Shown here one piece after another: positions 876 through 38,473 of a stretch of 64,000 nt of DNA. This DNA comes from an uncultured bacterium (lineage in GTDB: Bacteria; Krumholzibacteriota; Krumholzibacteriia; LZORAL124-64-63). The stretch's first letter is position 1. Every line of letters starts with the position of its first letter. A program made the translations under genes and the position numbers. The stretch covers positions 800,001 to 864,000 of the forward strand of contig CAVSGO010000007.1 in the NCBI GenBank assembly GCA_963727525.1. Direction: 5' to 3'. Under the pieces are notes generated by a model that made no database searches, had not been told where the DNA came from, and saw only the letters and a list, made by a program, of their open reading frames with translations.

Positions 876-3800
876 GGCGGCTGCACCGCGGGAGGTGTCC
901 GGTGAGCCGTGTCGTCCTCCTCGGGCTCACATTCCTCGCCCTGGTGGCACCGAAAGGCGCCGGGGCAGCGAGTGATGCCGCGCCGTCGGACGACGCCCTC
1001 ATTCCCGAGCTCGAGTTCTTCGTCTTGCCGGAGGGGAGCCAGGCCCTGGCCCTGGCACACGGGTACGTGGATCCCGCGAGCTTCCGGCTCACCGTCGGTG
1101 GTCGTCTGTGGGAGGCGGACCACGATTTCCGGTTGCGGTCGCGAGCCGGACTCGTCGTGCCGCTCCGTCACTGGGCGGCGCCCGGCGCGGGGCCGGTGGT
1201 GGTGAAGGCCGCCTACCGGTATCTGCCCGTGGCCTTCGCGCCACGCCTGGACCTGCGGCCACTCGCGCAGGCGCCCGTGCCCGCCACGTCCGGCGCGCGG
1301 GCGACCCCGGAAGCCACGGCGACGGGCCCGGGCAGCTACGGCACGCTCACCGTTCGCGGCAGCAAGTCGGTGCAGGTGTCCTCGGGTAACCGGCGTGATT
1401 TGACAGTGGACCAGAACTTGCGCCTGAGCATCGCTGGCCAGCTCACGCGCGACATCAGCGTGCGGGCGGCGCTCTCGGACGACAACCTCCCGGTGGTTCC
1501 CGAGGGCAATACCACCGAGCTACGCGACATCGACAAGGTGCTCGTGGAGCTGACCGCCCCGCACTGGCGAGCCACCCTCGGTGACTTCGTGGCGCTGCGT
1601 GGCGGCACGGTGTTCGGCAACTATCGACGCAAGCTGCAGGGTTTCTCGATCGCGGCGGAGGGCGTGGACGTGCTGGCGGGTTCGCCGCGCGGGCGTTATC
1701 GCACGGTCGAGATCCGCGGGCAGGAAGCGAACCAGGGCCCGTACTACCTGGGCGCCGGCGACAGTGGTACGAATCTCTACATCGTCGCGGGTTCCGAGCG
1801 CGTGACCCTCGATGGTGCCGAACTCACGCGGGGCGCCGACCGCGATTACGTGATCGACTACGTGCGCGGTACCGTCACGTTCACGTACCGGCGGATGATC
1901 ACTGCCGAGTCGCTGATCGTGGTGGAATACGAGGAAGGCGAGGGGCCGTACGCACGCACAGTGGTCGGGGCAGGCGCCGGCGCCAGTGCCCGGGTGCCGT
2001 TCCTGGGCGGAAGCCTCGCGTCGCTCACGGTGCGCCTGACCCGCGAGAAGGACGATCCCCAGCGTTTGCGCACGGGCACGCTCGACGCCGAAGACGAGAA
2101 TGTGCTGGCGGCGGCCGGCGACGATCCTCTCGCGGCCCTGGCCTCGGGCGTGACGTCGGTGGATCCGGGAACGGGCGATTACACGGCGCAGGAGCAGGGC
2201 AGCGACACGATCTACGTCTACACCCCAGGCGGCGATCTCACGGTGGCCTTCGCGTACGTGGGCGCCGGCTTCGGCGACTACGATCTGCAGTCGCTCACGG
2301 AAGCGGGCACGCGGGTCTACGTCTACCGCGGGCCGGGACTGGGCGCGTACCGGGTGGGACGCCTGCTGCCGCTGCCGGAGTCGCACAGCCTGGTGACCAT
2401 CGCCGGCGCGCTCGGCGACACCAGCGGCGCGGGCGTGGACGTGGAATGGGACATCTCCAAGCTCGACCGCAACGTCCTGTCCACCAGCGACAGTGGCGAC
2501 GATCATGGCGAGGCGGGCCGCGTGCGTCTGCGCAGCGGCGCCGTAGGCCTCGCCGGAGGGACGCTGGCCGCAAGCGCGTCGCACACCGACCGGGGCGGAT
2601 TCTTTCAGCCGCTGCTCTCGGACCGCACGATCTTCGATTATGAACGCTGGGGCCTGGCCGACCGCGCGCGGCGTGCGAACTTCCTCGCCCAGCGCGATAA
2701 GGTGACGGACGTTGCGACCCACTGGGCCGCCGGCGATGCCGGCCGCCGGCTCGCCCTCGGCGGCACCTGGGCGCACCTGGCGCATGGGCCCGACCTCACG
2801 GCGCGGCGCTGGCAAGCCTCCGGCGACGCGGAACTCGGCCGGGCACAGTGGCGCGGCACCATGCGGCGCGCCACGGCGCGCGACCGGGTCGATCCTCTTG
2901 AAGTGACGCGGCGCGACCAGGACCACCAGGTGGTGTGGCAAGGCCGCGCGGTCGTGCCACGCGTCAGCTACCGCCGGCAGGAATGGACCGATGCAGCGAT
3001 CGCCGGCCCCCGCGCTGCGGGATACCGCCTGCGTGAGTACGGCGGCGCCCTGGCGGGCCCCGCGGCCGGTACGTGGTCCTGGGACTTGGGGTTCGACCAC
3101 GGCCTCGCCGATTCGCTGCGCACCGGCGCGTGGCAGGGCGTGCGCGACAGCCGTACCTGGCACGCCCGCGCCGGCACGCCGCGCGTGGGCGGGGTGCGCC
3201 TCGTGGGTGAGGGAACGGTGCGCGAGGTGCACCTGCCCGGCGGCGGCACGGAGACCACGCGTCTGGCCAAGGCCGACCTCGCCGGACTGTGGCCCACCCT
3301 GGGTAGTGACTGGAGCCTGAGCTACAGCGTCGACAACAGCCGCGCCGAGGTGCTGCGGCGCGAGATCGTGTTCGTGGGTACGCATCAGGGCAGCTATGAT
3401 GCCGTGGGCGACTTCGTGGGCTTCGAGCAGGGCGACTACAACCTCGTACTCGCCGGCACCGACAGCCTCGTGGCGACCACGGCAGTCAAGGCCGATCTCG
3501 CCTGGCGTCAGGACTTCAGTGGCCTCGGCCACGACCGCGCGTGGGGTGCCTGGACCAGCGTCACGCGCGCCGCGGTGGAAGGCCGCAGTCGCACGGACGA
3601 CGTCGGCAGCCTGCTCGCGCTCAACCCCCGCGTGCTCTTCGACCCGGACACCGTGGTGCTGGCGCGCGTACAGCTCAACCAGGAGTTCGACTTCCTGCGC
3701 CATCTGCGCGACTGGGACCTGCGTGTGCTCTGGGATCACGACGAGTCGCGCGATCGGCAATATGCCGCGAGCCAGGAAGACCGCCTGCTGCGCCGGCAGC

Positions 3801-4271
3801 ACGGCACGTTGAGCTGGAACGCCACGCGGCAGGTCACGCTGCGGCTGCAGGGCGAGCGCGAGGCCGATCGGCGTACCACCGACGCCGTCGCGAACGAGGC
3901 GCGCCAGAGCTACGACGCGCACACGCGCCACGTCGATCTCGAAGCGGTTCTGCGACCACGTGCCGGCGACCGCGTGGCGTTCGGTGTGGAGGCGCTGACG
4001 CGCGACGACAGCTTCTCAGGCGTGTCGCAGACGGAGTACGCCGTGAATCCGAGCTTGCGGTGGCGTCCTCGCAACGATTGGACGCTGCAGTGCGACCTCC
4101 GTGTGGCCGAGGTCACGAGCGACGAGCCGGCGGGCGCGCGCCGTCCCTATTTCTTTCCCCGGCCCGGACGCAATGTCGATGCCAGCGCGCGCCTGGCCTG
4201 GAATCCGAACGACCATCTGACCTTCGCGCTCGCCTACTTCGGGCGCAAGCAGGGAGACCTGGAGTGGCAGC

Positions 4272-10882
<6,611 letters not shown>

Positions 10883-10892
10883 GGAGAGACCA

Positions 10893-12173
10893 ATGACGCG
10901 TGTCGACCTGCTCGTGGACTCGATCGGACAGCTCTGCACCGTCTCACGCCCCACCGACGGCGACGGTCCGCGGCGCGGCGCGGCGCTCGCGGATGTCGGA
11001 GCCATCGACGACGGCGCGCTCGCCATCGCCGATGGGCGGGTGGTGGCGGCGGGCCCGCGCCACGCGGTACGCCAGAGGCTCTGGCCGCACGGGGGGCCCG
11101 GGCCGGAGGTGACGGTGGTGGATGCCGCGGGTCGCTGTGTGGTACCGGGCTTCGTCGACCCGCATACCCATGCGGTCTTCGGCCGCACCCGCCAGGACGA
11201 GTATGAACGTCGGGTGCGCGGCGAGACCTACCTGCAGATCGCGGCGGCGGGTGGTGGGATCAACGCCTCGGTGCGCGATCTGCGCGAGCGTTCGGAGGAC
11301 GATCTCGTGGCACTGGCCGTCCCGCGGTTGCGGGAGATGGTGGCGCATGGCACCACAACTGTCGAAATAAAAAGCGGTTACGGGCTCAACTTGAATGATG
11401 AGCTGAAGAGCCTGCGCGCGGCGCGCCGGGCCGCTGACGCGGCCGGGATCGGCGCCGTGCTCACCTGCCTGGCCGCCCACGAGGTGCCGCCGGAGTACCG
11501 CGACCGTCGCGGCGACTACGTGCGCGTGGTGTGCGCGGAGGTGCTGCCGGCGGTGGTGGAGTCGGGCCTCGCCGACCGCTGCGACGTGTTCTGCGAGCCG
11601 TCGGTGTTCCCGCTGGCCGAGACGGAAACCATCCTCACCCGGGCTCGCGAGTTGGGGCTGCGGCTCACGGTGCACGCGGACGAACTGGAACCGATGGGTG
11701 GTGCGGCGCTGGCGGCGCGGCTCGGCGCGGATAGCGCCGACCATCTCATCGTCATCGACGCGGCCGGTCAAGCGGCGCTGGCAGGTTCGCGGACCGTGGC
11801 CACGCTGTTGCCGGGCACTGTCTTCACCCTCGGATTGCGCGCCTACGCGCCGGCGCGCGCCATGATCGACGCCGGCTGCGCCGTGGCGTTGGCCACGGAT
11901 TTCAACCCCGGCAGCAGCCCCATCCTGTCCGTCCCGCTGATCCAGGCGATCGCCTGCAGTCAGATGCGACTGCTGCCGGGGGAGGCGCTGGTGGGCACCA
12001 CGCTCAACGCGGCCTGGGCCCTGGGCCTGGCCGATCGCGTGGGATCGCTGGCGCCGGGCAAGGCCGCCGACTTCCTCATCCTCGACGGCGACGATCACCG
12101 TCTGGTGCCTTACCAGGCGGGGCATAATCCGGTGGCCGCGGTGTATCGCGCCGGCCGTCGCATCGCCGGTTGA
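10893..12173 (+). CDS. hutI: Imidazolonepropionase
   Basis: PGFVDPHTH, GTTTVEIKSGYGL, DVFCE, HADE, ATDFNPGSSP; GAGGAG RBS. Confidence 0.95.
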   Translation: MTRVDLLVDSIGQLCTVSRPTDGDGPRRGAALADVGAIDDGALAIADGRVVAAGPRHAVRQRLWPHGGPGPEVTVVDAAGRCVVPGFVDPHTHAVFGRTRQDEYERRVRGETYLQIAAAGGGINASVRDLRERSEDDLVALAVPRLREMVAHGTTTVEIKSGYGLNLNDELKSLRAARRAADAAGIGAVLTCLAAHEVPPEYRDRRGDYVRVVCAEVLPAVVESGLADRCDVFCEPSVFPLAETETILTRARELGLRLTVHADELEPMGGAALAARLGADSADHLIVIDAAGQAALAGSRTVATLLPGTVFTLGLRAYAPARAMIDAGCAVALATDFNPGSSPILSVPLIQAIACSQMRLLPGEALVGTTLNAAWALGLADRVGSLAPGKAADFLILDGDDHRLVPYQAGHNPVAAVYRAGRRIAG

Positions 12174-12197
12174 GCGCGGCTCCCCCAAAAAAAGCGC

Positions 12198-12224
12198 TCA
12201 ACCTGCGCTCATGCTGAACGAACT
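12198..12224 (+). promoter_or_regulatory. Sigma-28-like promoter candidate (TCAA-N15-AACGAACT)
   Basis: Same spacing as the motif before pilB, pilR and pilM; weaker -10. Confidence 0.4.
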
Positions 12225-12251
12225 ATGGGGACGCCAGGCCGGACCGCGGCC

Positions 12252-13850
12252 ATGAGTGGCCAAAGCATCATCGCCTCGTCGGGGAGCGACTCCTTGTCGT
12301 CCAAGCTCAGCAACCTGAAGCAGGAAGCCTACCAGGCAGCGAAGCGGCGCAACTGGGTCGAGGCCATCTCGATCTACGAGCGTCTGCTCGACCTCGACAA
12401 GAATAATCCCGCGCTCCTCAACGAGCTCGGCGATATCTGCCTGAAGAACCAGGACCCGCCGAAGGCCGTGCGCCAGTTCCTCAATGCAGCGGCGAAGTAC
12501 AAGCAGAACGGGCTGCTCAACAACGCAGTCGCGGTGTACAAGAAGGTGCTGCGGCACGAGCCCGACAACATCAATGCCCACTGGTTCCTCGCGGAGATCC
12601 GCTCGAGCCAGGGGCTGGTCATGGAGGGCGAGGTCCACGCGGAACGCTTCCTTGCGGCCGCGGACGTGGTGGCGGGGGAGATCAAGGAGATCTTCCTGAA
12701 GCGCTGCGTGCAATTGCTCGCCCTCTACCCGGGCAGCCGCGCGATCCTCGAACGCATGCAGGGCGTCTTTCGCGTCTGGAACCTGCCGCTCGAGGAGGCG
12801 CGCACGGCCTGCCTGCTCGCGGTCGTCCTGCGGGGAGAAGGGGAGGCCAAGGCCGGTGCCGCCCTCGTGCAGCGCGCCCTGGAGTTCTGTCCCGAAGTGG
12901 CGAATTACATCGAGTACACGCGCTGGCAGACGGCCAGCGGCACCACGACCAATCCGGCGAACTTCGCCGATGTCAACACCGTGGAACTCGGAGCGGCCGA
13001 CGAACCCGTCGCGGCGCCTGAGCCGGTCGTACCCGAGGTACCGGTACGGCCCGAACCGACGACGATGAGCTGGGACATCGGCGCGGAACTGGAGCTGGAG
13101 CCGGAGCCTGTGCCGCCCCCGGCGACTCCGTCCGCGCTGCCGGTGGACGCTTTCGAGCAATTCCTCGCGGGCACGAGCGATACCGACGACGCCGTGACCA
13201 CGAACGCGCCCGGCCAGGACGCCGTTGGCGCCTTCGGCCGCGATTCCGACGACGGCCTGCCCCGAGACGACGACGGCTGCTTCGCCATCGACACCGACGA
13301 CACCGGGACGGAGACGAGCTTCGCCGATCTCATCGACGCGGCCACGGCCAGCATCGGCACGCCGGCGAAGTCTGCGGATCCACTGCAGAAGATCCTCGAC
13401 GATGTGGGGCCGGACAGCGGTGGCGACGCGGGTCAGGTCGACACCATCACCAGCGAGATCGGCCAGCACGTGGGTGGCGAAGGCGAGCAGGATGCCGAGG
13501 CGCTGTATCAGCAGGGGCTGGTCTACCTCGAGCTGGGCCTGCACGCCCAGGCGGCCGAGAGCTTCGCGGCGGCGTCGGGCAGCGCGCAGTACGCCCTGCG
13601 GGCGTGCGAGATGCTCGGCGTATCCCTCGAGCGCGACGGTCGCGACAGGGAGGCGCTCACCGCCTTCGAGCAGGGCCTGGCCGTAACGGGCGTCGAGCCC
13701 CGGTCGATCCTCGGCCTTCACTACCACGCGGCGCAGCTCCACGAGCGCCTCGGCAACGCCGTTCGCGCCCGGGCCCACTACGAGGAGATCCACGCGATCG
13801 ATCCCACCTTCCTCGACGTCGCCCAGCGCATCCAGCAGCTCGTGCCGTAG
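12252..13850 (+). CDS. Tetratricopeptide-repeat protein with long acidic linker
   Basis: N- and C-terminal TPR helices separated by an Asp/Glu/Pro-rich low-complexity region; start at 12252 or 12225. Confidence 0.8.
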   Translation: MSGQSIIASSGSDSLSSKLSNLKQEAYQAAKRRNWVEAISIYERLLDLDKNNPALLNELGDICLKNQDPPKAVRQFLNAAAKYKQNGLLNNAVAVYKKVLRHEPDNINAHWFLAEIRSSQGLVMEGEVHAERFLAAADVVAGEIKEIFLKRCVQLLALYPGSRAILERMQGVFRVWNLPLEEARTACLLAVVLRGEGEAKAGAALVQRALEFCPEVANYIEYTRWQTASGTTTNPANFADVNTVELGAADEPVAAPEPVVPEVPVRPEPTTMSWDIGAELELEPEPVPPPATPSALPVDAFEQFLAGTSDTDDAVTTNAPGQDAVGAFGRDSDDGLPRDDDGCFAIDTDDTGTETSFADLIDAATASIGTPAKSADPLQKILDDVGPDSGGDAGQVDTITSEIGQHVGGEGEQDAEALYQQGLVYLELGLHAQAAESFAAASGSAQYALRACEMLGVSLERDGRDREALTAFEQGLAVTGVEPRSILGLHYHAAQLHERLGNAVRARAHYEEIHAIDPTFLDVAQRIQQLVP

Positions 13851-13878
13851 CACGCTTCGCCGGTGTTTGCCGTAGCGC

Positions 13879-13907
13879 TTGCCACCGCCCCCACCTTTGC
13901 CTACGAT
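13879..13907 (+). promoter_or_regulatory. Sigma-70 promoter (TTGCCA-N17-TACGAT), probably leaderless
   Basis: -10 ends 7 nt before ATG 13914; no SD. Confidence 0.6.
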
Positions 13908-13913
13908 CCGGTC

Positions 13914-16496
13914 ATGTCAGACACGCCCAGGCAATCGTCCTCGTTTTCCGGGGTCCGGCAGGCCGTCTTGCTGGGCCTTTTTACGGGTACGGGGTGCGGG
14001 CTCGGCGTCCTGCTGTCCGGGGTTCCCAACGTGGAACTGATCACCCTCACGTCGGTTCTCGCCGGCGTTGCGCTCGGTCCGGTCGGCGGGCTCGTCGCCG
14101 GCGCGCTGGCCGAGGCGGCGTACTCGCTCGCCAGTCCCTATGGCGTTGCCCTGCCGGTGCTGTTCGTGGCGCAGGTGGTCGGCATGGGCCTGGCCGGGCT
14201 CGTGGGCGGGCTGACGGCGCCACCGCTGCTGCGTTTGCTCGCGCAGCGCCGACGGCTCGTGACCGGCGTCCTGGCGGCGACCCTGGGAGCAGCGACGACC
14301 GTGGTCTTCGACCTCCTCACCAACCTGGCAATCGGTCTCGCCACCGACATCGACTTGCGCGTCGCTCTCGCGGGCGGCATCGTGTTCGCGTTGCTGCACG
14401 TCGGCGCGAACTCGCTCGTCTTCGGCGCGCTCTGGCCCCTGCTCGCGCCGCGGGTGCGGCGGTTGCGCGCGCCCAGTCTGCGCGTCCAGGTGGTGGCCTG
14501 GCTCGCACTCGGGGTGTTCGCTTGCGCGGCGCCGGGGCGGGCGCAGCTCGCGCCGGTGCTGGCCGACTCCGACACGGCGATCGCCGTCGTGGATACCGCG
14601 GCCGCGATCGCGGCGATGGACACGCTCGGCGCCGTCGCCGATACGACGAGGACCTTCGCGGGCGTCGACACGACGACGGCCGTGCCCGACACCGCGGCCA
14701 TCCTCGTCACCACGCCGCCCGCGGTGCGCACGGTGCGCGGCTGGCGCCGCCCGTTGTGGGAGCCGTTCTACTCGTCACTGCGCGAGGACCTCGCGCGGCG
14801 GTCGCAGTGGCTGGCCGTCGCCGACGGCGGCTTCGGCGCGCGGGTCTTCCTCGCCGGCGAACCCGGCACGTCATTTTTCCCCACGGTGCTGCGGGACGGT
14901 TTGCCGGTGCTCGTGGGGCATCGCTTCCTCGACGACGTCGAGAGCGTGCCCATCACCGGCACGCGGCTCGGCGCCACGACCTTCGGCCTCGACGGCTGGG
15001 GCGGTACCGACGGCGTCGTGAGGCGCAACGAAGCCGACCTGCGCCCCGATGCAGCCTTCACCGATACGCGCTGGCACGCAGGTTCGCAGCAAGATCTCTT
15101 CCGCAGCGTCCACCTGCTGACGGCCGTGGCGCCGTGGCGCGTGGGGCTGGATATCGAGGAGCACCTGAACGACGAGGCCTACGATTTCCGTACGCCTGGC
15201 GAGACCCGCTATTCCGGACTTGCTGATGCGGAGGTGGCCGGCTTCCCGGGGCGGGCGAAGTTCCGCAGCGGGCGCGGCGTGCTACGGCGCTATCTCGACT
15301 TGCAGACCAGCCTCACCGTCTCGGTCGAGGATGTGCGCAAGCTGAAGAACGCGTTGCCGGCCTTCGATGCGACCGAGCAGGATCTCTGGCGCCACACCTT
15401 CGCGGTCGACTGGCGTGAGCCGGGGTTGCGGGCGGCCGCGTACACCATCGACGAAGCAGTCGACTGGAATCGCCCTGCCAGCAGCGGCAACCCGCCGCCC
15501 GCGCGCAAGCTCGAGGGCGGGCGTGAGGGAATCCTGCTCACGCTCGGCGACGGTCTGTTGAGATTCACCGCTGAGCGCTGGACCCTCGCGGATACCGGCG
15601 CCGACACGAGCTGGGCGCCCGACGACGCGGGACCGGTGGACGGCAGCGGTGCGTCGACCAACCTCGGCGCGGCACGCGCATGGACCGTGGGCCCGGCGCG
15701 GCTGGCGGCGACGGCGGCGGCGCGCTGGGACGACGGCGCCGGCTGGGCGCCGGAAGCCGCGGTGCACGTCGCGTCGGCGGACTCGCTGCCGTGGTGGACG
15801 GTGTCGCTCGAGCGCGGCGGTCGGGCGCCGCGCAGTGACGAACGGTTGACGGCCTGGCGTTTCGCGGCGCCGGAGCGCATCGACACGGTGGTGCTGCCAG
15901 GACACGGTCTCGCGCGGGAACGCACGTGGCGCGGGGTGGCGGCGCTGCAGCGGCGCGTGGCTGGCCTCGATGTTGCCTTGTCGGCCGCCTATCGCCGTCT
16001 CGAAGACGGCATCGGCTGGCGGGCGCAGGACGGCACCCGCACCGGACGCTGGGCCAACGGGCTCGACCTGCGGTCGCACACGATACGCGCCGGTCTCAGC
16101 CGAGAGGGTCGCTTCCTCGGCTGGGTCCGCGTGCAGGCTGACGCGGCCTGGCGCGGCTGGACCCGGGACGGCGACGTGCGCATCGCACTACCGCCGCGCC
16201 AGGACTGGCAGGTGGGCGTGCTGTGGGAGAATCACTTCTTCGACGAGGACGGCATCCTGCAGGTGGGATGGTTCCTCGACCATCGCGGCGAGATGGACGA
16301 CCCGTGGTATCTCGCGCGCCGGATCGTGCTGCCGGCAACGACGCAGCAGGACCTCGTCCTCGGCTTCCGGCTCGTAGGCACCAACCTCGGCATCGCCTTG
16401 CTCAATCTCACCGACCAGCGTGTGCTCACGAGCGCGGGCTCGCTCACGGATGGACGCCAGATGCGCTGGCGCCTGCACTGGACCTTCCTCTTCTAG
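13914..16496 (+). CDS. Fusion: ECF transporter S-component (CbrT-like) + internal signal peptide + TonB-plug-like/outer-membrane beta-barrel
   Basis: N-terminal ~180 aa multi-TM region with VPNVELIT, FVAQ, FDLLTN, HVGAN; then basic patch + hydrophobic stretch + PGRA/Q; plug-like PTVLRDGLPV; beta-strand C-half ending WRLHWTFLF. Confidence 0.7.
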   Translation: MSDTPRQSSSFSGVRQAVLLGLFTGTGCGLGVLLSGVPNVELITLTSVLAGVALGPVGGLVAGALAEAAYSLASPYGVALPVLFVAQVVGMGLAGLVGGLTAPPLLRLLAQRRRLVTGVLAATLGAATTVVFDLLTNLAIGLATDIDLRVALAGGIVFALLHVGANSLVFGALWPLLAPRVRRLRAPSLRVQVVAWLALGVFACAAPGRAQLAPVLADSDTAIAVVDTAAAIAAMDTLGAVADTTRTFAGVDTTTAVPDTAAILVTTPPAVRTVRGWRRPLWEPFYSSLREDLARRSQWLAVADGGFGARVFLAGEPGTSFFPTVLRDGLPVLVGHRFLDDVESVPITGTRLGATTFGLDGWGGTDGVVRRNEADLRPDAAFTDTRWHAGSQQDLFRSVHLLTAVAPWRVGLDIEEHLNDEAYDFRTPGETRYSGLADAEVAGFPGRAKFRSGRGVLRRYLDLQTSLTVSVEDVRKLKNALPAFDATEQDLWRHTFAVDWREPGLRAAAYTIDEAVDWNRPASSGNPPPARKLEGGREGILLTLGDGLLRFTAERWTLADTGADTSWAPDDAGPVDGSGASTNLGAARAWTVGPARLAATAAARWDDGAGWAPEAAVHVASADSLPWWTVSLERGGRAPRSDERLTAWRFAAPERIDTVVLPGHGLARERTWRGVAALQRRVAGLDVALSAAYRRLEDGIGWRAQDGTRTGRWANGLDLRSHTIRAGLSREGRFLGWVRVQADAAWRGWTRDGDVRIALPPRQDWQVGVLWENHFFDEDGILQVGWFLDHRGEMDDPWYLARRIVLPATTQQDLVLGFRLVGTNLGIALLNLTDQRVLTSAGSLTDGRQMRWRLHWTFLF

Positions 16497-16530
16497 CTTG
16501 CCCCTGGCACGCCGCCACGTGGGGACGGTC

Positions 16531-16974
16531 ATGACGCGGCGTGAGGCCGCAGCCCTGCTCGTGGCAGCCGCGCTCATCCTCGCCGGGCGCGGGCTGCGGC
16601 ACTGGCTGCTCGTGGGGCCCGACGGAGCCTGGCGAGATCCCGAATGGCTCGCTACGGCCCTGCCGCCGCTGGAGTCGGAGTCACCCGACCCCGAGCCCGC
16701 GCGTGCTGTCCTCATGGGCCCCCTGGCCGTCAACACCTGCCCTGCGGAGTCCCTCGTCGCCTTACCGGGCGTCGGACCCGTGCTCGCCGGGCGCATCGCA
16801 ACCGCCCGCGAGCAGGGCGTGCGTTTTGCAAACCTCGACGACCTCCAGCAGATCAAGGGCATTGGCCCGCGCCTCGCCGCGAAACTCGCGCCCTGGGTCG
16901 TATTCGGCCCGTTCGCGGCCACCGACACGTGCCGGGCGCAGCCTGCAATGCCACCCCCCGCCCGGGTCCCGTGA
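16531..16974 (+). CDS. comEA: ComEA-family helix-hairpin-helix DNA-binding protein
   Basis: N-terminal TM; VNTCPAESLVALPGVGPVLAGRI...F..LDDLQQIKGIG tandem HhH. Confidence 0.85.
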   Translation: MTRREAAALLVAAALILAGRGLRHWLLVGPDGAWRDPEWLATALPPLESESPDPEPARAVLMGPLAVNTCPAESLVALPGVGPVLAGRIATAREQGVRFANLDDLQQIKGIGPRLAAKLAPWVVFGPFAATDTCRAQPAMPPPARVP

Positions 16975-16991
16975 TTGCTGGGATTCTGCCC

Positions 16992-17019
16992 TCAAGGCCA
17001 CGGCGTATTGCGACGATAT
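16992..17019 (+). promoter_or_regulatory. Sigma-28-like promoter candidate (TCAA-N16-GACGATAT) before pilB
   Basis: Resembles the TCAAG-N14-GCCGATA FliA-type consensus, with one extra spacer base. Confidence 0.5.
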
Positions 17020-17094
17020 GAGGCCTGATCGGGTTGCCGTAGGAACGGTCAGCCACGACCACGCCTCATGTGTCCCGGAGTGGAGTACCCGCCC

Positions 17095-18792
17095 ATGAAC
17101 ACTGGCACCGCCGTGAACGTCAGGGACAAGATCGCCAATCGCCTGCTCGAGGCCGGGCTCGTCGACCAGGCCCAGCTCGCGCAGGCGATCGAGCAGCAGA
17201 AGAAGGACGGCGGCACGCTCGGCCAGATCCTCGTGCGCATCGGCGCCGTGGACGAGGCGAGGTACACGGAGTTCCTCGGCAAGGTCTATAATCTGCCGGT
17301 GGTCGATCTCGACAAGCTGCCTGTGGCCGACGACTGCATTGCGCTCATTCCCGCCGACGTGGCCGCGAAGTTCCAGGTGCTGCCGGTGCGGCGTCAGGGC
17401 CGCGTGCTCACCGTCGCCATGGCGAATCCGAGCAACATCTTCGCGATCGACGACATCAAGTTCATCACCAGCCTCGACGTGCGACCGGTGGTGGCGAGCG
17501 AGTTGGCTCTCAAGAAGGCCATCGACAAGTACTACCAGCCCACCGATTCGCTGTCTTCGATCATGGAAGGCATCGAGGACGATATCGAGATCGTCGAGGA
17601 GAGCGACGAGGACGATCTCGGCAACAACGACGCGCAGAACGCGCCGGTGGTGAAGCTCGTCAACACGCTGCTCGCCGAAGCGGTGAAGATTGGCGCCAGC
17701 GATATCCACATCGAACCGTATGAGCGCAGCATGCGCGTGCGCTACCGCATCGACGGCGTGTTGCAGGAAGTGATGGAGCCGCCGATCAAGCTGAAGAACG
17801 CCATCATCAGCCGCCTGAAGATCATGTCCGAGCTGGACATCGCCGAGCGCCGCATCCCGCAGGATGGCCGCATCAAGATCAAGATCGGCGACAAGAAGGT
17901 GGACCTGCGTGTCTCCACCTTGCCCTGCATCTTCGGCGAGAAGGTCGTGATGCGTATCCTCGACAAGGGGAACCTCACCCTCGACCTCGCCAGCTTCGGC
18001 ATGGAAGACAAGGCGCTGCGCGACGTCAACGAGGCGATCGCCAAGCCCTACGGCATGGTGCTCGTCACGGGCCCCACAGGCTCCGGCAAGACGACCACCC
18101 TGTACTCCTGCCTCTCGCGCGTGAACAACATCGACGTCAACATCATGACGGCCGAGGACCCCGTGGAATACAACCTTGACGGCATCAACCAGGTGCAGGT
18201 GCGCGACGAGGTGGGGCTCACCTTCGCCGCCGCGCTCAAGGCCTTCCTGCGGCAGGACCCGAACATCGTGATGGTCGGCGAGATCCGCGATCTCGAGACG
18301 GGCTCCATCGCGGTGAAGGCGGCGCTTACCGGTCACCTCGTGTTTTCGACGCTGCACACCAACGACGCGCCGGCCACCGTGAACCGTATGGTCGACATGG
18401 GCATCGAGCCGTTCCTCGTGGCGTCGTCAACCAACATCATCATGGCCCAGCGCCTCGTGCGCCGGATCTGCAAGGGTTGTCGGGAAGAAGATGCGGTGCC
18501 CCCGGAGGCGCTGTCGGACATCGGCCTCGCCCCGGGCACCAAGGTCTTTAAGGGCAAGGGCTGCGAGAAGTGCAAGGGCTCGGGCTACTCGGGTCGGCAA
18601 GGGCTCTACGAAGTGATGCCCATCACCTCGCGTTTGCGCGAGCTGATCCTCGACCGAGCCTCGACCGCCGAGCTGCGCAAGCAGGCCATCGCGGACGGCA
18701 TGCTCACGCTCCGTCAGGATGGGCTGAAGAAGATCGAACGAGGTATCACGACCATCGCAGAGGTCCTGCGCGAGACCACGGTGCAGGACTAG
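17095..18792 (+). CDS. pilB: Type IVa pilus assembly ATPase
   Basis: MshEN-like N-terminus, ASDIHIEP, GPTGSGKTT, LRQDP, GEIRD, tetracysteine motif. Confidence 0.95.
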   Translation: MNTGTAVNVRDKIANRLLEAGLVDQAQLAQAIEQQKKDGGTLGQILVRIGAVDEARYTEFLGKVYNLPVVDLDKLPVADDCIALIPADVAAKFQVLPVRRQGRVLTVAMANPSNIFAIDDIKFITSLDVRPVVASELALKKAIDKYYQPTDSLSSIMEGIEDDIEIVEESDEDDLGNNDAQNAPVVKLVNTLLAEAVKIGASDIHIEPYERSMRVRYRIDGVLQEVMEPPIKLKNAIISRLKIMSELDIAERRIPQDGRIKIKIGDKKVDLRVSTLPCIFGEKVVMRILDKGNLTLDLASFGMEDKALRDVNEAIAKPYGMVLVTGPTGSGKTTTLYSCLSRVNNIDVNIMTAEDPVEYNLDGINQVQVRDEVGLTFAAALKAFLRQDPNIVMVGEIRDLETGSIAVKAALTGHLVFSTLHTNDAPATVNRMVDMGIEPFLVASSTNIIMAQRLVRRICKGCREEDAVPPEALSDIGLAPGTKVFKGKGCEKCKGSGYSGRQGLYEVMPITSRLRELILDRASTAELRKQAIADGMLTLRQDGLKKIERGITTIAEVLRETTVQD

Positions 18793-18802
18793 GAGGCCAC
18801 AC

Positions 18803-19879
18803 GTGACCGGAATGCGCGAACTTCTCGAGGACATGGTCGCCCGCGGCGCGAGCGACCTGCACCTCACGGCCGGACTCCCCCCGCAGTACCGCGTGGACGG
18901 AAGCATCGAGTCGAGCGACTACGCTGTGCTCACGGGGGAGGACACGCGGCGGCTCGCCTATAGCATCCTCAACGAGGAGCAGAAGAAACGCTTCGAGAAC
19001 GACCGCGAGCTCGACCTCTCCTTCGGTGTGCAGGGGATCAGCCGCTTCCGCGCGAACGTCTTCATCCAGCGCGGAGTGACGAGCATGGCCATCCGGCAGA
19101 TCCCTTACGAGATACACAGCTTCGAGGCACTCGGGCTGCCGCAGGTGTGCCGTGACCTGATCAATCGCAGCCAGGGACTCATCCTGGTGACCGGCCCCAC
19201 CGGTAGCGGCAAGTCGACCACACTGGCCACCATGGTCGACACGATCAACCGTAGCCGCAGCGGCCACATCATCACCATCGAGGACCCGATCGAGTACGTG
19301 CACCAGCACAAGAAGTGCATCGTCAACCAGCGCGAGGTCAACAACGACACCAAGACCTTCGGGGGCGCGCTCAAGTACGTGTTGCGCCAGGATCCCGACG
19401 TCATCCTCATCGGTGAGATGCGCGACCGCGAGACGATCGCGGCGGCCCTCACCATCGCGGAGACGGGCCACCTCGCCCTCGCCACGCTGCACACGAACAG
19501 CACGTTCGAGTCGGTGAACCGTATCATCGACGTATTCCCGGCCGAGCAGCAGAACCAGGTGCGTTCGCAGCTAAGCTTCTGTCTCTCGGGGGTCATCACT
19601 CAGCAGCTCATCCCGCGGGCGAAGGGTTCGGGGCGCGTCCTGTCGCTTGAGATCATGATCTGCACTCCAGCCGTGAAGGCCATGATCCGCGACAACAAGA
19701 CGCATCAGATCTACGGCATCATCCAGGCCGGTCAGAAGTACGGCATGCAGACGATGAATCAGTCGCTCTATCAGGCGTACGAGAATCGCTGGATCTCGCG
19801 CGAAGAGGCCCTCGGACGCAGCATGGACCAATCGGAACTGCTGCAGATGATGGGCGAACCCGCGAAGGTCGGCGTCTAG
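18803..19879 (+). CDS. pilT: Type IV pilus retraction ATPase
   Basis: ASDLHL, GPTGSGKSTT, TIEDPIEY, LRQDPDVILIGEMRD, AIRNLIRE-like AVKAMIRD. Confidence 0.95.
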   Translation: MTGMRELLEDMVARGASDLHLTAGLPPQYRVDGSIESSDYAVLTGEDTRRLAYSILNEEQKKRFENDRELDLSFGVQGISRFRANVFIQRGVTSMAIRQIPYEIHSFEALGLPQVCRDLINRSQGLILVTGPTGSGKSTTLATMVDTINRSRSGHIITIEDPIEYVHQHKKCIVNQREVNNDTKTFGGALKYVLRQDPDVILIGEMRDRETIAAALTIAETGHLALATLHTNSTFESVNRIIDVFPAEQQNQVRSQLSFCLSGVITQQLIPRAKGSGRVLSLEIMICTPAVKAMIRDNKTHQIYGIIQAGQKYGMQTMNQSLYQAYENRWISREEALGRSMDQSELLQMMGEPAKVGV

Positions 19880-19894
19880 TCGGGAGGTCGAGGT

Positions 19895-21112
19895 TTGGCT
19901 GCAACCACCACATACATCTGGAAGGGCCGCAGCGCCAAGGGCGAGGAGCTCAAGGGCGAGTACGTGGCCGAGGATCGGCGCCATGTCGGCGAGTACCTGC
20001 GCAAGCGCCGCATCGTCATCCAGTCGATCCGCAAGAAGCCGAAGGACATCACGCTGTCCTTTTTGCAGAAGAAGGGCGTGTCGGTCAAGGACCTCAGCGT
20101 CTTCACGCGCCAGTTCGCGACCATGGTCAACGCCGGACTGCCGCTCGTGCAGTGTCTCGACGTGCTGGCGCGCCAGCAGACGAAGCCGCACATGAAGGCC
20201 GTCGTCTCCCAGGTCATGATGGACGTGGAGGGTGGGGCCACGCTGGCCGAGGGGCTAGCGAAGGCGCCGAACGTGTTCTCCGAGCTGTATGTCAACATGA
20301 TCGCGGCCGGTGAGACGGGTGGTATCCTCGATACGATCCTGCAACGCCTGGCCGTATTCATGGAGAAAGCCGACGCCCTGCAGCGCAAGATCAAGGGCGC
20401 GATGACCTACCCGGCGATCGTGCTCTTCGTGGCCACGGGCGCCTGCATCTTCATGCTCATCGGCGTGATCCCGATCTTCGCCAAGATGTTCTCCGACTTC
20501 GGCGGCGAGCTGCCGGCACCCACACGCGTGGTCATGGGCATGTCCAACTTCCTGCGCCAGAACTGGTACATTCTGGTGGCCGTGGCGGTCGCGTGCGTCT
20601 TCGCCTACAAGCGCGTGCGCGCGAATCCGCGCGGGCAGTACATCACCGACAAGCTCTTCCTGCGCATCCCGATCATCGGCAACGTCCTGCGCAAGGGTTC
20701 CGTGAGCCGCTTCACGCGCACCCTCGGCACGCTCATCGGTTCGGGCGTGCCCATTCTGCAGGGCCTCGAGATCACCTCCAAGACCTCGGGCAACCGTGTG
20801 CTGCAGGAGGCCATCGAGAACGTGAGCCGCAGCATCAGCCAGGGCGAGACCATCGCGGACCCACTCAAGCGCAGCGGTGTGTTCCCGCCCATGGTGGTGC
20901 AGATGATCGGCATCGGCGAGCAGACCGGCGCCCTCGACGAGATGCTCTCGAAAGTCGCCGACTTCTACGACGACGAGGTGGACGCCGCGGTCGAGGCGCT
21001 CACGGCCGCGATCGAGCCCATCATGATCGTCGTCATGGGTACCATGGTCGGCGGCATGCTGGTCGCCATGTACCTGCCCATGTTCAAGATGGCCAGCGTG
21101 GTCGGAGGCTAA
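19895..21112 (+). CDS. pilC: Type IV pilus platform protein (GspF/PilC)
   Basis: FTRQFATMVNAGLPL, GETGGILD, GEQTGALDEML, AMYLPMF; TTG start after GGAGG. Confidence 0.95.
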   Translation: MAATTTYIWKGRSAKGEELKGEYVAEDRRHVGEYLRKRRIVIQSIRKKPKDITLSFLQKKGVSVKDLSVFTRQFATMVNAGLPLVQCLDVLARQQTKPHMKAVVSQVMMDVEGGATLAEGLAKAPNVFSELYVNMIAAGETGGILDTILQRLAVFMEKADALQRKIKGAMTYPAIVLFVATGACIFMLIGVIPIFAKMFSDFGGELPAPTRVVMGMSNFLRQNWYILVAVAVACVFAYKRVRANPRGQYITDKLFLRIPIIGNVLRKGSVSRFTRTLGTLIGSGVPILQGLEITSKTSGNRVLQEAIENVSRSISQGETIADPLKRSGVFPPMVVQMIGIGEQTGALDEMLSKVADFYDDEVDAAVEALTAAIEPIMIVVMGTMVGGMLVAMYLPMFKMASVVGG

Positions 21113-25102: not shown

Positions 25103-26092
25103 ATGATCGACACCACGGTGACCAGAAACCAGGCAGAGCCGACCGCCGCGGTCGCGCCCCGGACGGCCTCGGCCCTGGTCGTCAACGACCTTCACAAGAC
25201 CTATCGCCAGGGCTTCTGGGGGCGGCGGGCGAAGCCGGCGGTGGCCGGCGTGAGCTTCGCCGTGCCGCGCGGCTCGGTCTTCGCCCTGCTGGGGCACAAC
25301 GGGGCGGGCAAGACGACGACGATGAAGGCCCTGCTGGGGCTCATTCGCCCCGACCGCGGCACGCTGACGATCGAGGGTGTGGATGCGAACCGTCCGGCGT
25401 CGCGTGCACGGGTGGGCTACCTGCCCGAGTCGCCGCACTTTCCCGAGAATCTCAGCGTGCGCGAGTTGCTCGACTACTATGGTCGGTTGTACACGATGCC
25501 CGCCGCGCAGCGCCGCGCGCGTATCGATGCGTGCCTCGCGCAGGTGCAGATGAGCGAGTTCGCGGGCCGGCGCGTGGGCGCGTGTTCCAAGGGCATGCGC
25601 CAGCGCGTCGGGCTCGCCCAGGCCCTGCTCAACGAACCCGCGGTGCTGATCCTCGACGAGCCGCAATCGGGCCTCGATCCGCTCGGGCGCAAGCAGGTGC
25701 GTGAGATCCTGCTCGCGCAGAAACGCGCCGGCGTCACCATCCTCTTCTCTTCCCACATCGTGCCCGATGTGGAGGCGGTGGCCGACCAGGTGGCCATGCT
25801 GCACCATGGTCGGCTCACCGAGATTCGCGACCTGGCCCATACCGGCGCAGCCACGCGCTATCGTGCGCGTATTCGCCGTCCGGCCGCCGGCAGCGAAGCC
25901 GCGCGGCTGCTGGCGGGGTGCACCGTCGACGAGCTCGACGCCCAGCGCTGCGACGTCACGGTTGCCGACGCTGGCGAACTGGGCAACCTGCTCGTCGCCT
26001 GCGCCGCCGACGCCGTCGAGGTACTCCACGTGGCCAGCGTGGACACCGATCTCGAGAGCGACTTCCTCGCGAAGCTGGGGGTGGGGTCATGA
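25103..26092 (+). CDS. ABC transporter ATP-binding protein (Myxococcus PilH-like)
   Basis: GHNGAGKTT, CSKGMRQR signature, ILDEP, SSH. Confidence 0.88.
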   Translation: MIDTTVTRNQAEPTAAVAPRTASALVVNDLHKTYRQGFWGRRAKPAVAGVSFAVPRGSVFALLGHNGAGKTTTMKALLGLIRPDRGTLTIEGVDANRPASRARVGYLPESPHFPENLSVRELLDYYGRLYTMPAAQRRARIDACLAQVQMSEFAGRRVGACSKGMRQRVGLAQALLNEPAVLILDEPQSGLDPLGRKQVREILLAQKRAGVTILFSSHIVPDVEAVADQVAMLHHGRLTEIRDLAHTGAATRYRARIRRPAAGSEAARLLAGCTVDELDAQRCDVTVADAGELGNLLVACAADAVEVLHVASVDTDLESDFLAKLGVGS

Positions 26093-36600: not shown

Positions 36601-37544
36601 CGAGTCGATACGACGCCTCCCCCGGAGTTCCCGTGCCCGGTTTGCGCAAGACCATCCGCCGCGCGCGCGATTTCGCGGCGCTCGGCAGCCTTTACCTGCT
36701 GACGCGGCCCCTGTCGTTCCGCGCCTTGCAGCGCGTGGGCCGGGGGCTGGGGGTGCTCTGCTACCACGTGATCCCGGTGCGCAAGGCGGTGGTGCTGGCC
36801 AACCTCGAGGCGGCTTTCGGCGACACCCTCGACTCGCGAGCAATCCGCGACCTGGCGCGGCGTTTCTATGCCTGCCTCGGCACCACGTTGCTCGAGTTCT
36901 ACGGACTGGGCCGTTTGCGACCCGAGCGCCTGCGGACCCTGGTGGACATCGAGGGGCGAGAGCACCTCGACGCGGCGCTCGCCGGCGGCAAGGGCGCCCT
37001 GCTCGTCTCCGGCCACTTCGGCAACTGGGAGCTGCTCGCGTCGGCCATCGTCGCCCTGGGCTACCCCACGCGGTTCGTCACCAAGTCGCAGTCGAATCCG
37101 CTGGTGGACCGCATGCAGGCGCGCATCCGCGGCCAGGCGGGCGTCGGCATGATCCGCACCGACGGCTCCCTCGTCGACATCATCCGCGTACTGCGGCGCG
37201 GCGAGTTCATCGGCATCCTGGGCGATCAGGACGCCGGACTGTCGGGCCAGTTCGTGAACTTCCTCGGCCGGCCCGCCAGCGTATTCCGTGGCACAGCCCG
37301 CTTCGCGTATCGCCTGCAGTGCCCCATCGTCACCGGCGGCATCGTACGCCAGCCGGACGGGCGCCACCGCGTGGTGCTCGGCGCGCCCATCCACGTGGAC
37401 CCGGCGTGGGACGAGGAAACGGCCATCCGCGAGCTCACGGAAAAGCATACGCAACGTTTGGAAGCCCTCGTCCGTAGGTGGCCCGACCATTATTTCTGGG
37501 TGCACCGCCGCTGGAAAACCCAGCCTCCGAAGGAGACGCCGTGA
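36597..37544 (+). CDS. Lipid A lauroyl/acyltransferase (LpxL/HtrB family)
   Basis: HFGNWE, DQ, FLG, P..YFWVHRRWK. Confidence 0.88.
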   Translation: MTSRYDASPGVPVPGLRKTIRRARDFAALGSLYLLTRPLSFRALQRVGRGLGVLCYHVIPVRKAVVLANLEAAFGDTLDSRAIRDLARRFYACLGTTLLEFYGLGRLRPERLRTLVDIEGREHLDAALAGGKGALLVSGHFGNWELLASAIVALGYPTRFVTKSQSNPLVDRMQARIRGQAGVGMIRTDGSLVDIIRVLRRGEFIGILGDQDAGLSGQFVNFLGRPASVFRGTARFAYRLQCPIVTGGIVRQPDGRHRVVLGAPIHVDPAWDEETAIRELTEKHTQRLEALVRRWPDHYFWVHRRWKTQPPKETP

Positions 37545-38473
37545 TCGAGGTCCAGGATCTGGTCAAGCGCTTCGGCGCGCTCACCGCGGTCGATAGCATC
37601 AGCTTCGCCGTCGGCCGGGGCGAGCTCTTCGGTCTGCTCGGCCCCAACGGAGCCGGCAAGACCACGACCATCGCCATGCTCTCCACCCTGCTGCCCGCCG
37701 ATGGCGGCCGCGCGATCGTCGCCGGCCTCGACGTCGCGAAGGATCCCGCGGGTGTGCGCCGGCGCATCGGCGTGGTGCCGCAGGAGATCGCGCTCTACGA
37801 GGATCTGAACGCTCGCGAGAACCTGCACTTCTGGGGGCGCCTCTATGGACTCGCGGGCGCCGACCTCGATCGCCACGTCGAGGCCATGCTCGAGCGGGTC
37901 GATCTGCGCGAGCACGCCCGCCAGCGGGTGTCCACCTTCTCCGGCGGCATGAAGCGTCGCCTCAACCTCGCGGCCGGCCTCATGCACAACCCGGAGGTGC
38001 TCTTTCTCGACGAGCCCACGGTCGGCATCGACGCGCAGGCCCGCAGTCGCATTCTGGAGTTGATCCAGGACATGAAGGCCAACGGTCTGACTGTGGTCTA
38101 TACCACACATTACCTCGAGGAGGCGGAGCACCTCTGTGACCGCATTGGCGTGATCGATCAGGGGCGTCTGGTGGCGCTGGGGGACAAGGAGGATCTCATC
38201 AGCCAGATTGGTGACGAGGATACGATCCGGCTCCAGCTTCCCGACGCTGTCGGCGACGCGCTGCAGGCCGCGGCAAGGACGTGGGCCGGGGTGACGGCGG
38301 TAGACACTCATGCGGGACGCGCGGAGATGCGCGTCGGAGACGGCGCGCGCGTCTTGCCCGTGCTGCAAGCGTGGCTCGACGCTCGCGGCCTGCCTCTGGC
38401 CGGGCTGGAGGTGGAGCGCCCCAACCTCGAGTCGCTCTACCTGAATCTCACCGGCCGGGCTCTGAGGGAGTAG
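37541..38473 (+). CDS. ABC exporter ATP-binding protein
   Basis: GPNGAGKTT, FSGGMKRR, LDEPTVG, TTHYLEEAE; AGGAG RBS, GTG start. Confidence 0.92.
   Translation: MIEVQDLVKRFGALTAVDSISFAVGRGELFGLLGPNGAGKTTTIAMLSTLLPADGGRAIVAGLDVAKDPAGVRRRIGVVPQEIALYEDLNARENLHFWGRLYGLAGADLDRHVEAMLERVDLREHARQRVSTFSGGMKRRLNLAAGLMHNPEVLFLDEPTVGIDAQARSRILELIQDMKANGLTVVYTTHYLEEAEHLCDRIGVIDQGRLVALGDKEDLISQIGDEDTIRLQLPDAVGDALQAAARTWAGVTAVDTHAGRAEMRVGDGARVLPVLQAWLDARGLPLAGLEVERPNLESLYLNLTGRALRE

Follow-up and report, generated by a model that had tools for sequence, protein, structure and literature searches.

We analysed a stretch of 64,000 nucleotides (the window) from an uncultured bacterium of the class Krumholzibacteriia (GenBank assembly GCA_963727525.1, contig CAVSGO010000007.1, positions 800,001 to 864,000 of the forward strand), and in it one gene whose product joins an S-component of the energy-coupling factor (ECF) type to a plugged β-barrel of the outer-membrane receptor type (Table 1). 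The gene lies in a single plus-strand open reading frame that runs without interruption from 13863 to 16496, and translation from the ATG at 13914 yields 860 residues. This start is backed by an alignment of 40 full-length relatives (profile A1, 853 positions), in which the other proteins also begin 12 to 14 residues ahead of a conserved VRQ.VLLGLF motif; it is not preceded by a Shine-Dalgarno-like run. The landmarks named in the initial annotation, which had been made by a model from the sequence and a list of its reading frames, were found in their places, with VPNVELIT at residues 37 to 44, the codon of Q211 at 14544, PTVLRDGLPV at residues 323 to 332 and Phe as the last residue.

Table 1. 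Features of the fused gene (nucleotide positions are those of the window; residues, aa, are counted from the ATG).
Feature	Position	Strand	Remarks
Whole fused gene	13914..16496	+	860 aa + stop; predicted precursor of S-component and outer-membrane barrel
ECF S-component domain, six-helix bundle, aa 1-182	13914..14459	+	AlphaFold2 model, Foldseek, profile A3
Arg-rich, putatively cytoplasmic n-region PRVRRLRAPSLR, aa 179-190	14448..14483	+	
Hydrophobic h-region, 7th helix, aa 191-206 (16 residues)	14484..14531	+	
c-region P-G-R-A and predicted signal peptidase I site A210/Q211	14532..14546	+	
Disordered linker, D-S/D-T rich, aa 211-276	14544..14741	+	
Plug-like domain, aa 277-381	14742..15056	+	Opens with invariant W..PLW.PF; contains PTVLRDGLPV
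β-barrel of ~22 strands, aa 382-860, end ...WRLHWTFLF	15057..16493	+	AlphaFold2 strand list, Foldseek

Since the G+C content of the window is about 70%, long frames by themselves mean little here, and the frame was examined among its relatives. A search of 5.8 billion proteins returned 63 matches, about 60 of them full length with 35 to 54% identity, and a representative protein library returned 395. Profile A1 had matches in 166 of the phylum’s 208 genomes and, within the family, in 86 of 90. In 45 genomes, that of the window included, one stop-free frame spans the profile from position 7 or earlier to position 850 or later, and in two more (G115 and G157) the match falls into two pieces inside one frame. 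The single uninterrupted frame described in the initial annotation is thus confirmed well beyond the window. A pattern that could speak for an error of assembly or sequencing is seen in genome G082, where the two halves lie in adjacent frames and the shift falls inside the signal-like helix at the junction. However, the same uninterrupted frame was recovered in at least 45 genomes assembled independently of one another and in many metagenome proteins, so that the chance that the fusion is such an artefact is negligible. The sole DNA sequencing run listed contained a fraction of 0.05 of the sampled sequence words, and it is the many independent fused frames that settle the matter of a frameshift. 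The architecture is real, conserved and unusual. Public entries for the relatives, which stem from Candidatus Krumholzibacteriia, candidate division KSB1 and one metagenome-assembled genome of Bacteroidota, bear the labels ‘hypothetical protein’, ‘ECF transporter S component’ or ‘TonB-dependent receptor’.

Structure prediction agrees with the earlier assignment of the N-terminal half to the S-components. An AlphaFold2 model of residues 1 to 209, made with an alignment of 49 stand-alone S-domain relatives (A3), reached a predicted local distance difference test (pLDDT) value of 89.7. Its best Foldseek matches were the S-components FolT, ThiT, BioY, RibU and PanT, with probabilities of about 1.0 and TM-scores of 0.58 to 0.73 by target length, and its atlas neighbours carry the S-component label with a score of 0.93. 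Three relatives exceed the cut-off of the S-component family PF12822 (P0106, 39.8 bits; P0111, 40.4 bits; P0115, 43.2 bits). When profile A3 was compared with the sequences of solved structures, it matched a single one over its whole length (E = 8e-13), the 182-residue membrane chain of 6FNP, which we take for CbrT on the grounds of its length; 6FNP is described as ECF-CbrT, the vitamin B12 transporter of Lactobacillus delbrueckii (PMC5997447). The invariant columns of A1 include the polar residues E41, Q87, T136-N137, H162 and R180 of this domain. The Foldseek E-values are only 0.02 to 0.2. Against the assignment, the window protein itself stays below the curated S-component cut-offs (20.2 bits against 30.7 for PF12822 and 14.2 against 60 for TIGR04518). 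The profile of the full-length alignment, searched against the PDB sequences, gave a chance-level match alone (5wuf, E = 0.77).

The C-terminal half had been read as a TonB-type plug followed by a barrel, and the predicted structure bears this out. The full-length AlphaFold2 model based on A1 has a pLDDT of 84 and a predicted TM-score of 0.78, and it consists of long helices over residues 9 to 182, a disordered stretch over residues 188 to 271 (pLDDT below 50), a small domain of helices and strands, and about 22 to 23 long strands that continue to the last residue. Confidence is high from residue 281 onwards, with pLDDT mostly above 90. Foldseek returned at least 211 PDB matches with E-values of 0.001 or lower, and all matches listed are TonB-dependent transporters. 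The top match was E. coli BtuB (1nqg; E = 1.3e-22, TM-score 0.77 by target length, about 595 aligned columns including the plug, 14% identity). As many receptors reach a TM-score of about 0.5 when it is scaled by query length, the first rank of BtuB may merely reflect its small size. Further points against a receptor-type barrel come from the sequence profiles: neither Pfam Plug (PF07715) nor TonB_dep_Rec (PF00593) matched the window protein at E ≤ 1, NCBIfam did no better on it, the two Pfam families were likewise without a match in three stand-alone barrel relatives, and many relatives have Q, R, H or K at the C-terminus in place of an aromatic residue. Plug matches were obtained for relative P0117 and for four of seven relatives encoded next to an S-component gene, one of which has a receptor-barrel match as well. 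The barrel would presumably be assembled in the outer membrane. A relative of 902 residues from candidate division KSB1 (P0160, with its cluster; public label ‘TonB-dependent receptor’) seems, judged by eye, to have an additional domain inserted behind the signal-like helix and ahead of the plug, as do some Bacteroidota-type receptors.

Between the two domains, residues 179 to 210 have the n-, h- and c-region layout of a Sec signal peptide, as read directly from the sequence. For the statistics of this junction, 60 of the 63 relatives could be placed by anchors, while P0018, P0023 and P0057 were dropped. Ahead of the hydrophobic core, the net charge is never below +1 and its median is +3.5, and at the end of the helix a small-x-small motif followed by Q, E or D is present in 57 of the 60 proteins, with Ala at position −1 in 54 and Q at position +1 in 37 of these 57. 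The pattern [AVSTGCLI]x[AGS]Q fits 39 of the 60 relatives, compared with 10.9% of the other 30-residue windows in the same proteins. The linker behind it is poorly conserved and varies from 18 to 99 residues (median 56), and the density of D[ST] pairs is 0.054 per residue in it as opposed to 0.007 in the barrel. To see whether the Q-rule of Bacteroidetes accounts for the conserved Q at +1, the signal-like N-termini of the genome were scanned in a crude way with a poor pattern; 17 of 276 have Q behind A-x-A (6.2%, with a background of 3.7%). According to PMC5837995, the rule does not hold across the whole Fibrobacteres-Chlorobi-Bacteroidetes group. The extra helix had been interpreted in the initial annotation as an internal signal peptide that releases the receptor half. 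Its signal-like character stands, given the layout, the conserved A-x-A then Q and the N-terminal signal peptides to which it corresponds (see below); the cleavage that was claimed with it is a prediction, and we consider it fairly probable that signal peptidase I cuts between A210 and Q211.

The genome contains 13 TonB_C matches over the cut-off and 10 Plug matches, and in its Plug-bearing receptors the signal peptides look ordinary, as do the TonB boxes (for example DTVVVSA and EVVVTA). A similar hexapeptide, AILVTT, is found in the linker of the window protein (residues 262 to 267, nucleotides 14697 to 14714). It is specific to this protein and not kept in A1, which leaves the fused family without a conserved TonB box, and in some relatives the predicted cut and the plug are just 18 to 31 residues apart; both observations speak against a TonB-dependent receptor. 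The C-terminal barrel may be TonB-dependent.

The lack of a conserved box would suit a different arrangement, in which no cleavage takes place, the seventh helix is a permanent anchor and the barrel is tethered by the linker, so that one polypeptide resides in both membranes. The linker of the fused forms is mostly missing in barrel-only relatives, most of which have almost no N-terminal tail, and it joins the plug at its N-terminus, the end where TonB normally acts. However, a plain anchor needs neither the conserved small-x-small motif nor the Ala at −1. The periplasm is about 20 nm or more wide, whereas the shortest linkers (18 to 36 residues) would stretch to about 13 nm at most. In addition, the same barrel stands alone in 23 genomes and is encoded by a separate gene in sister families. 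We regard an uncleaved protein as unlikely on these grounds. There is an outside chance that some members stay uncleaved and that ATP-driven toppling of the S-component pulls on the linker and plug, opening the barrel in place of TonB and the proton gradient.

The origin of the junction could be traced by comparison with genes in which the two domains are separate. The representative search also yielded stand-alone barrels of 577 to 639 residues and stand-alone S-components of about 170 to 215 residues, and eight stand-alone barrels begin with ordinary Sec signal peptides a few residues ahead of the W.PF motif. In other families of the class, an S-component gene (176 to 211 residues) abuts or overlaps a barrel gene on the same strand (596 to 697 residues) at seven of eight loci, and the downstream barrel genes at these seven carry their own signal peptide; the eighth locus, in genome G173, is fused. 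Canonical TonB boxes were found in three of the seven sister-family barrels (L076, L079 and L082). Fused and split orthologues, the comparison proposed in the initial annotation, thus both exist. The window and the sister loci share their flanks, with urocanase (hutU), an imidazolonepropionase-like amidohydrolase (hutI) and a tetratricopeptide repeat (TPR) protein upstream and PilB and PilT downstream. Because the split genes stand at orthologous loci with the same flanks, the window gene is the fused form of an old gene pair. The seventh helix is the counterpart of the barrel’s N-terminal signal peptide, and cleavage by signal peptidase is the best reading of the junction because the same segment is the barrel’s own N-terminal signal peptide in the two-gene loci of the sister families.

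Within the window’s own family, a hand tally gives 23 genomes in which the barrel occurs by itself; they make up seven genera plus one single genome. Fifteen barrel loci were inspected, and 13 of them were barrel-only, with a signal peptide of their own and no S-domain within 5 kb. The other two, in genomes G164 (L055) and G082 (L049), represent two natural ‘experiments’ on the junction. In G164 an internal deletion leaves the first S-domain residues directly before the hydrophobic helix, which now serves as an N-terminal signal, while G082 is the frame-shifted case mentioned above. A quick FastTree tree of the barrel parts (56 rows, with a long-branched outgroup) placed the barrel-only forms in one clade nested among the fused forms, and G164 separately, which indicates two losses of the S-domain.

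The derivation from a gene pair also bears on the possibility that the barrel is made mainly from an internal start before the hydrophobic helix, for instance the GTG at 14454, and that the long frame is a relic of overlapping genes rather than a working polyprotein. In the ancestral gene pair a start codon stood at this place, and of the 20 fused orthologues that could be parsed (10 of 30 loci were dropped), 18 have an in-frame ATG, GTG or TTG no more than 22 codons ahead of the hydrophobic core. The initial annotation had pointed out that no Shine-Dalgarno sequence precedes the internal GTGs at 14454 and 14490. This is correct but uninformative, since the main start at 13914 has no such run either. 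However, the positions of these codons are not conserved, and most are ordinary Val or Leu codons (ATG in 6 of 20). At least 45 genomes from many genera have retained the frame without the former stop codon. Translation of the S-domain would carry ribosomes across the junction anyway, so a full-length precursor would still have to be handled. Taking both sides, we consider production of the barrel mainly from an internal start quite improbable.

ECF S-components work with an EcfT-type protein, and the genome contains one CbiQ/EcfT-like gene, on contig 7 at about 1337525 to 1338260 (minus strand), about 475 kb from the fused gene. This gene (L010) is very divergent and stands alone between asd and truA, with no ABC (ATP-binding cassette) ATPase match next to it; two Arg-rich helices (A..R..A.RLRR and RRAE.LPLAL.GR) are preserved among its relatives. 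The EcfT-like protein was matched in 61 of the 91 genomes of the family, and by hand tally it is present in 58 of 62 genomes with the S-domain as opposed to none of the 23 barrel-only genomes. The four S-domain genomes without a match (G110, G123, G154 and G155) are 75, 60, 82 and 88% complete, respectively. Genome G164, which lost the S-domain separately, has no EcfT-like gene, while all seven of its congeners have both the gene and the S-domain.

A model of the complex between the EcfT-like protein (alignment A4) and the S-domain scored 0.73, compared with 0.00 for the best of three controls; 58 of 80 solved complexes attained this mark, as did 2 of 110 mismatched pairs. The runs agreed in at least 81% of the contacts, and the pLDDT of the partner was at least 81. 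In the modelled interface, residues 11 to 37 of the S-domain lie against both Arg-rich helices of the EcfT-like protein, an arrangement also seen in ECF complexes of solved structure. The model supports binding of the EcfT-like protein by the S-domain, although, as solved complexes with a like interface exist, the score may only reflect that likeness. Other results weigh against this reading. The match of the EcfT-like protein to CbiQ is weak (31.9 bits against a cut-off of 25), and none of the 63 ABC ATPase matches in the genome exceeds the EcfA cut-off of TIGR04520 (best, 162.9 against 315 bits). The phyletic pattern rests on two independent losses of the S-domain and is therefore suggestive rather than statistical proof.

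These data bear on several points of the initial annotation. It had stated that the window holds no ECF A or T genes, which is true of EcfT; as for the ATPases, the window does hold two generic ABC ATPases, at about 25181 to 25822 and 37544 to 38251, both far under the EcfA cut-off. It had also likened the N-terminal half to the solitary carrier BtuM, a view that did not hold up, as the occurrence of the S-domain follows that of an EcfT-like gene at another place in the genome and the complex model backs their binding. The carrier appears to be part of an ECF-type system rather than a stand-alone protein. Since it tracks a partner, the earlier statement that one gene provides both membrane steps is overstated.

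Loss of the S-domain is accompanied by a different transporter. A near full-length FecCD permease (260 to 313 bits) was found in 21 of the barrel-only genomes and a fragment of one in another, together 22 of 23, whereas strong FecCD matches occur in merely 3 of the 62 S-domain genomes (G108, G115 and G161) and the others have weak partial matches. The genome of the window has no FecCD match over the cut-off and no other PF12822-like S-component. At a barrel-only locus examined as an example (L085, genome G119, positions 5117 to 8213), the operon begins with a nitroreductase-family gene, followed by genes for a 268-residue Peripla_BP_2 binding protein, an ATPase and the FecCD permease, and it adjoins a gene for an M1 peptidase with a FlgD_ig tail. 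The best NCBIfam match of this permease is BtuC, and BtuF is the second best of the binding protein; all of these scores are under the curated cut-offs.

Vitamin B12, which the initial annotation had offered as a possible substrate, is retained as a lead. The profile match to CbrT and the apparent displacement of the S-domain by a BtuFCD-like importer, a swap that rests on two events only, speak for it, and a distant fused relative carries the automatic IMG label ‘outer membrane cobalamin receptor’. On the other side, a search with Rfam models found no cobalamin riboswitch in the window, at 20 fused loci, at 8 sister loci or near 9 FecCD operons. The only cobalamin riboswitch of the genome heads another, canonical TonB-dependent receptor, at locus L057 (contig 7, 266054 to 271000). 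The nearest NCBIfam models of the S-domain relatives are also ambiguous as to the vitamin, with folate-type models in 19 of 50 and RibU in 6 of 50. We give a corrinoid substrate slightly less than even odds; haem or another chelate is possible. In the riboswitch-led operon, the receptor gene is followed by genes for a 462-residue FlgD_ig protein without other matches and a PduO-type adenosyltransferase, and no inner-membrane transporter is encoded in it. The presence of this receptor and adenosyltransferase in a genome that lacks a FecCD match over the cut-off counts in favour of a corrinoid.

The surroundings of the gene raise the question whether the C-terminal half is a plugged barrel with a role outside transport, for instance in secretion or as a structural component associated with the type IV pilus genes, with the S-domain as a sensor or anchor. 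The gene lies class-wide between hutU, hutI and the TPR gene on one side and genes for a ComEA-like protein, PilB, PilT and PilC on the other. The subfamily lacks Pfam receptor matches as well as a conserved TonB box, and, according to the accessible part of a survey of the fold (PMC11109136), S-component folds serve as sensors too. However, the orthologues at the same locus in the sister families include four of seven with a Pfam Plug domain and three with canonical TonB boxes, the S-domain tracks an EcfT-like transport partner, and its loss coincides with the presence of a type II ABC importer, which fits a role in transport and not in the pilus. A non-transport function is very improbable in our view, and import of a nutrient is the reading that we pursue below.

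The gene order shared across the class, as seen in the window (10812 to 13850 and 16420 to 21112) and at L076 and L082, is urocanase, amidohydrolase, TPR protein, PHP protein (in part of the loci), S-component, barrel, a small or ComEA-like protein (in part of the loci), PilB, PilT and PilC. The TPR protein has weak matches to type IV pilus assembly factors such as SgmX. The ComEA-like helix-hairpin-helix protein is listed at 16420 to 16974 (plus strand); as this frame overlaps the 3′ end of the fused gene, its real start is probably later, near MTRRE.... At the beginning of the window, a 1134-residue frame without a Pfam match (902 to 4306, plus strand) runs into the gene for an Omp85/POTRA protein (4272 to 6170, plus strand), and the two could be a TamB/TamA-like or other barrel-assembly pair.

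We propose, with a probability of about 0.65, that one precursor gives rise to both an inner-membrane S-component and an outer-membrane barrel by way of an internal signal peptide, and that the two belong to a route of uptake across both membranes. The fusion would have arisen from two abutting genes, S-component first and barrel second. In the precursor, the six-helix S-component formed by the first 182 residues would stay in the inner membrane, while the Arg-rich segment and the 16-residue helix would act as an internal Sec signal that starts the export of the C-terminal part of about 650 residues. Signal peptidase I would then cut after G-R-A and before Q211. The released part, comprising the flexible D-S/T-rich tail, the plug and the barrel of about 22 strands, would move to the outer membrane and form a small transporter with the fold of TonB-dependent transporters. 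The S-component would work with ATPases and with the EcfT-like protein, whose gene lies about 475 kb from the fused gene, and the parts together would import a scarce, cofactor-like nutrient.

ECF transporters are best known from single-membrane bacteria, and the inner- and outer-membrane parts of transport systems are normally encoded by separate genes. A precursor of comparable design is FbcH, the cytochrome b/c1 precursor of Bradyrhizobium japonicum, in which a polytopic inner-membrane protein is followed by an internal signal peptide and cleavage frees a second exported protein; both FbcH products remain at the inner membrane, whereas the second product here would go to the outer membrane. 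The C-terminal half shares the plug-in-barrel fold with E. coli BtuB and other TonB-dependent transporters, but unlike BtuB it has no Pfam Plug or barrel match, no conserved TonB box and no riboswitch, and its signal peptide is internal. With BtuM and BtuB of Thiobacillus denitrificans (PMC6072759), it has in common that a carrier of the S-component fold is linked by gene position to a TonB-dependent receptor, which in that system is for the same vitamin. BtuM and BtuB are, however, separate genes, BtuM is described as working without an ECF module (PMC6072759) whereas the S-domain of the window co-occurs with an EcfT-like gene, and profile A3 did not match BtuM among the solved structures. 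ECF-CbrT (PMC5997447) resembles the present system in that the N-terminal domain matches the presumed CbrT chain by profile and an EcfT partner is apparently needed. In contrast, CbrT is a separate small protein of a one-membrane bacterium and has no outer-membrane partner, while the domain here forms the front part of a fusion with a barrel precursor and has a strongly diverged EcfT-like partner, and the search for EcfA turned up generic ABC ATPases only.

The initial annotation knew of no description of this architecture. A full-text literature search likewise found no S-component/TonB-dependent-receptor-type fusion; its scope was the articles themselves, as distinct from supplements such as the homologue lists for BtuM and CbrT, in which fused forms may be named. 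The accessible text of the BtuM paper reports co-location with btuB and no fusion (PMC6072759), and by word search ‘barrel’, ‘outer membrane’, ‘TonB’ and ‘plug’ are absent from the accessible text of the 2024 survey of S-component-fold architectures (PMC11109136).

A conserved single frame supplying both membranes by way of an internal signal peptide would represent a kind of polyprotein seldom met in bacteria. It would also offer a clean natural experiment on the handling of such a precursor by the Sec machinery, signal peptidase and the β-barrel assembly machinery (BAM). As a ‘Rosetta stone’, the fusion ties a large, unannotated family of small plugged barrels that Pfam does not see to ECF-type import, and it points to a very divergent EcfT. 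It shows how diderm bacteria could couple ECF transporters to an outer-membrane receptor, and the apparent swap between the S-domain with its EcfT-like partner and a BtuFCD-like importer provides a concrete hypothesis on the substrate for an uncultured phylum.

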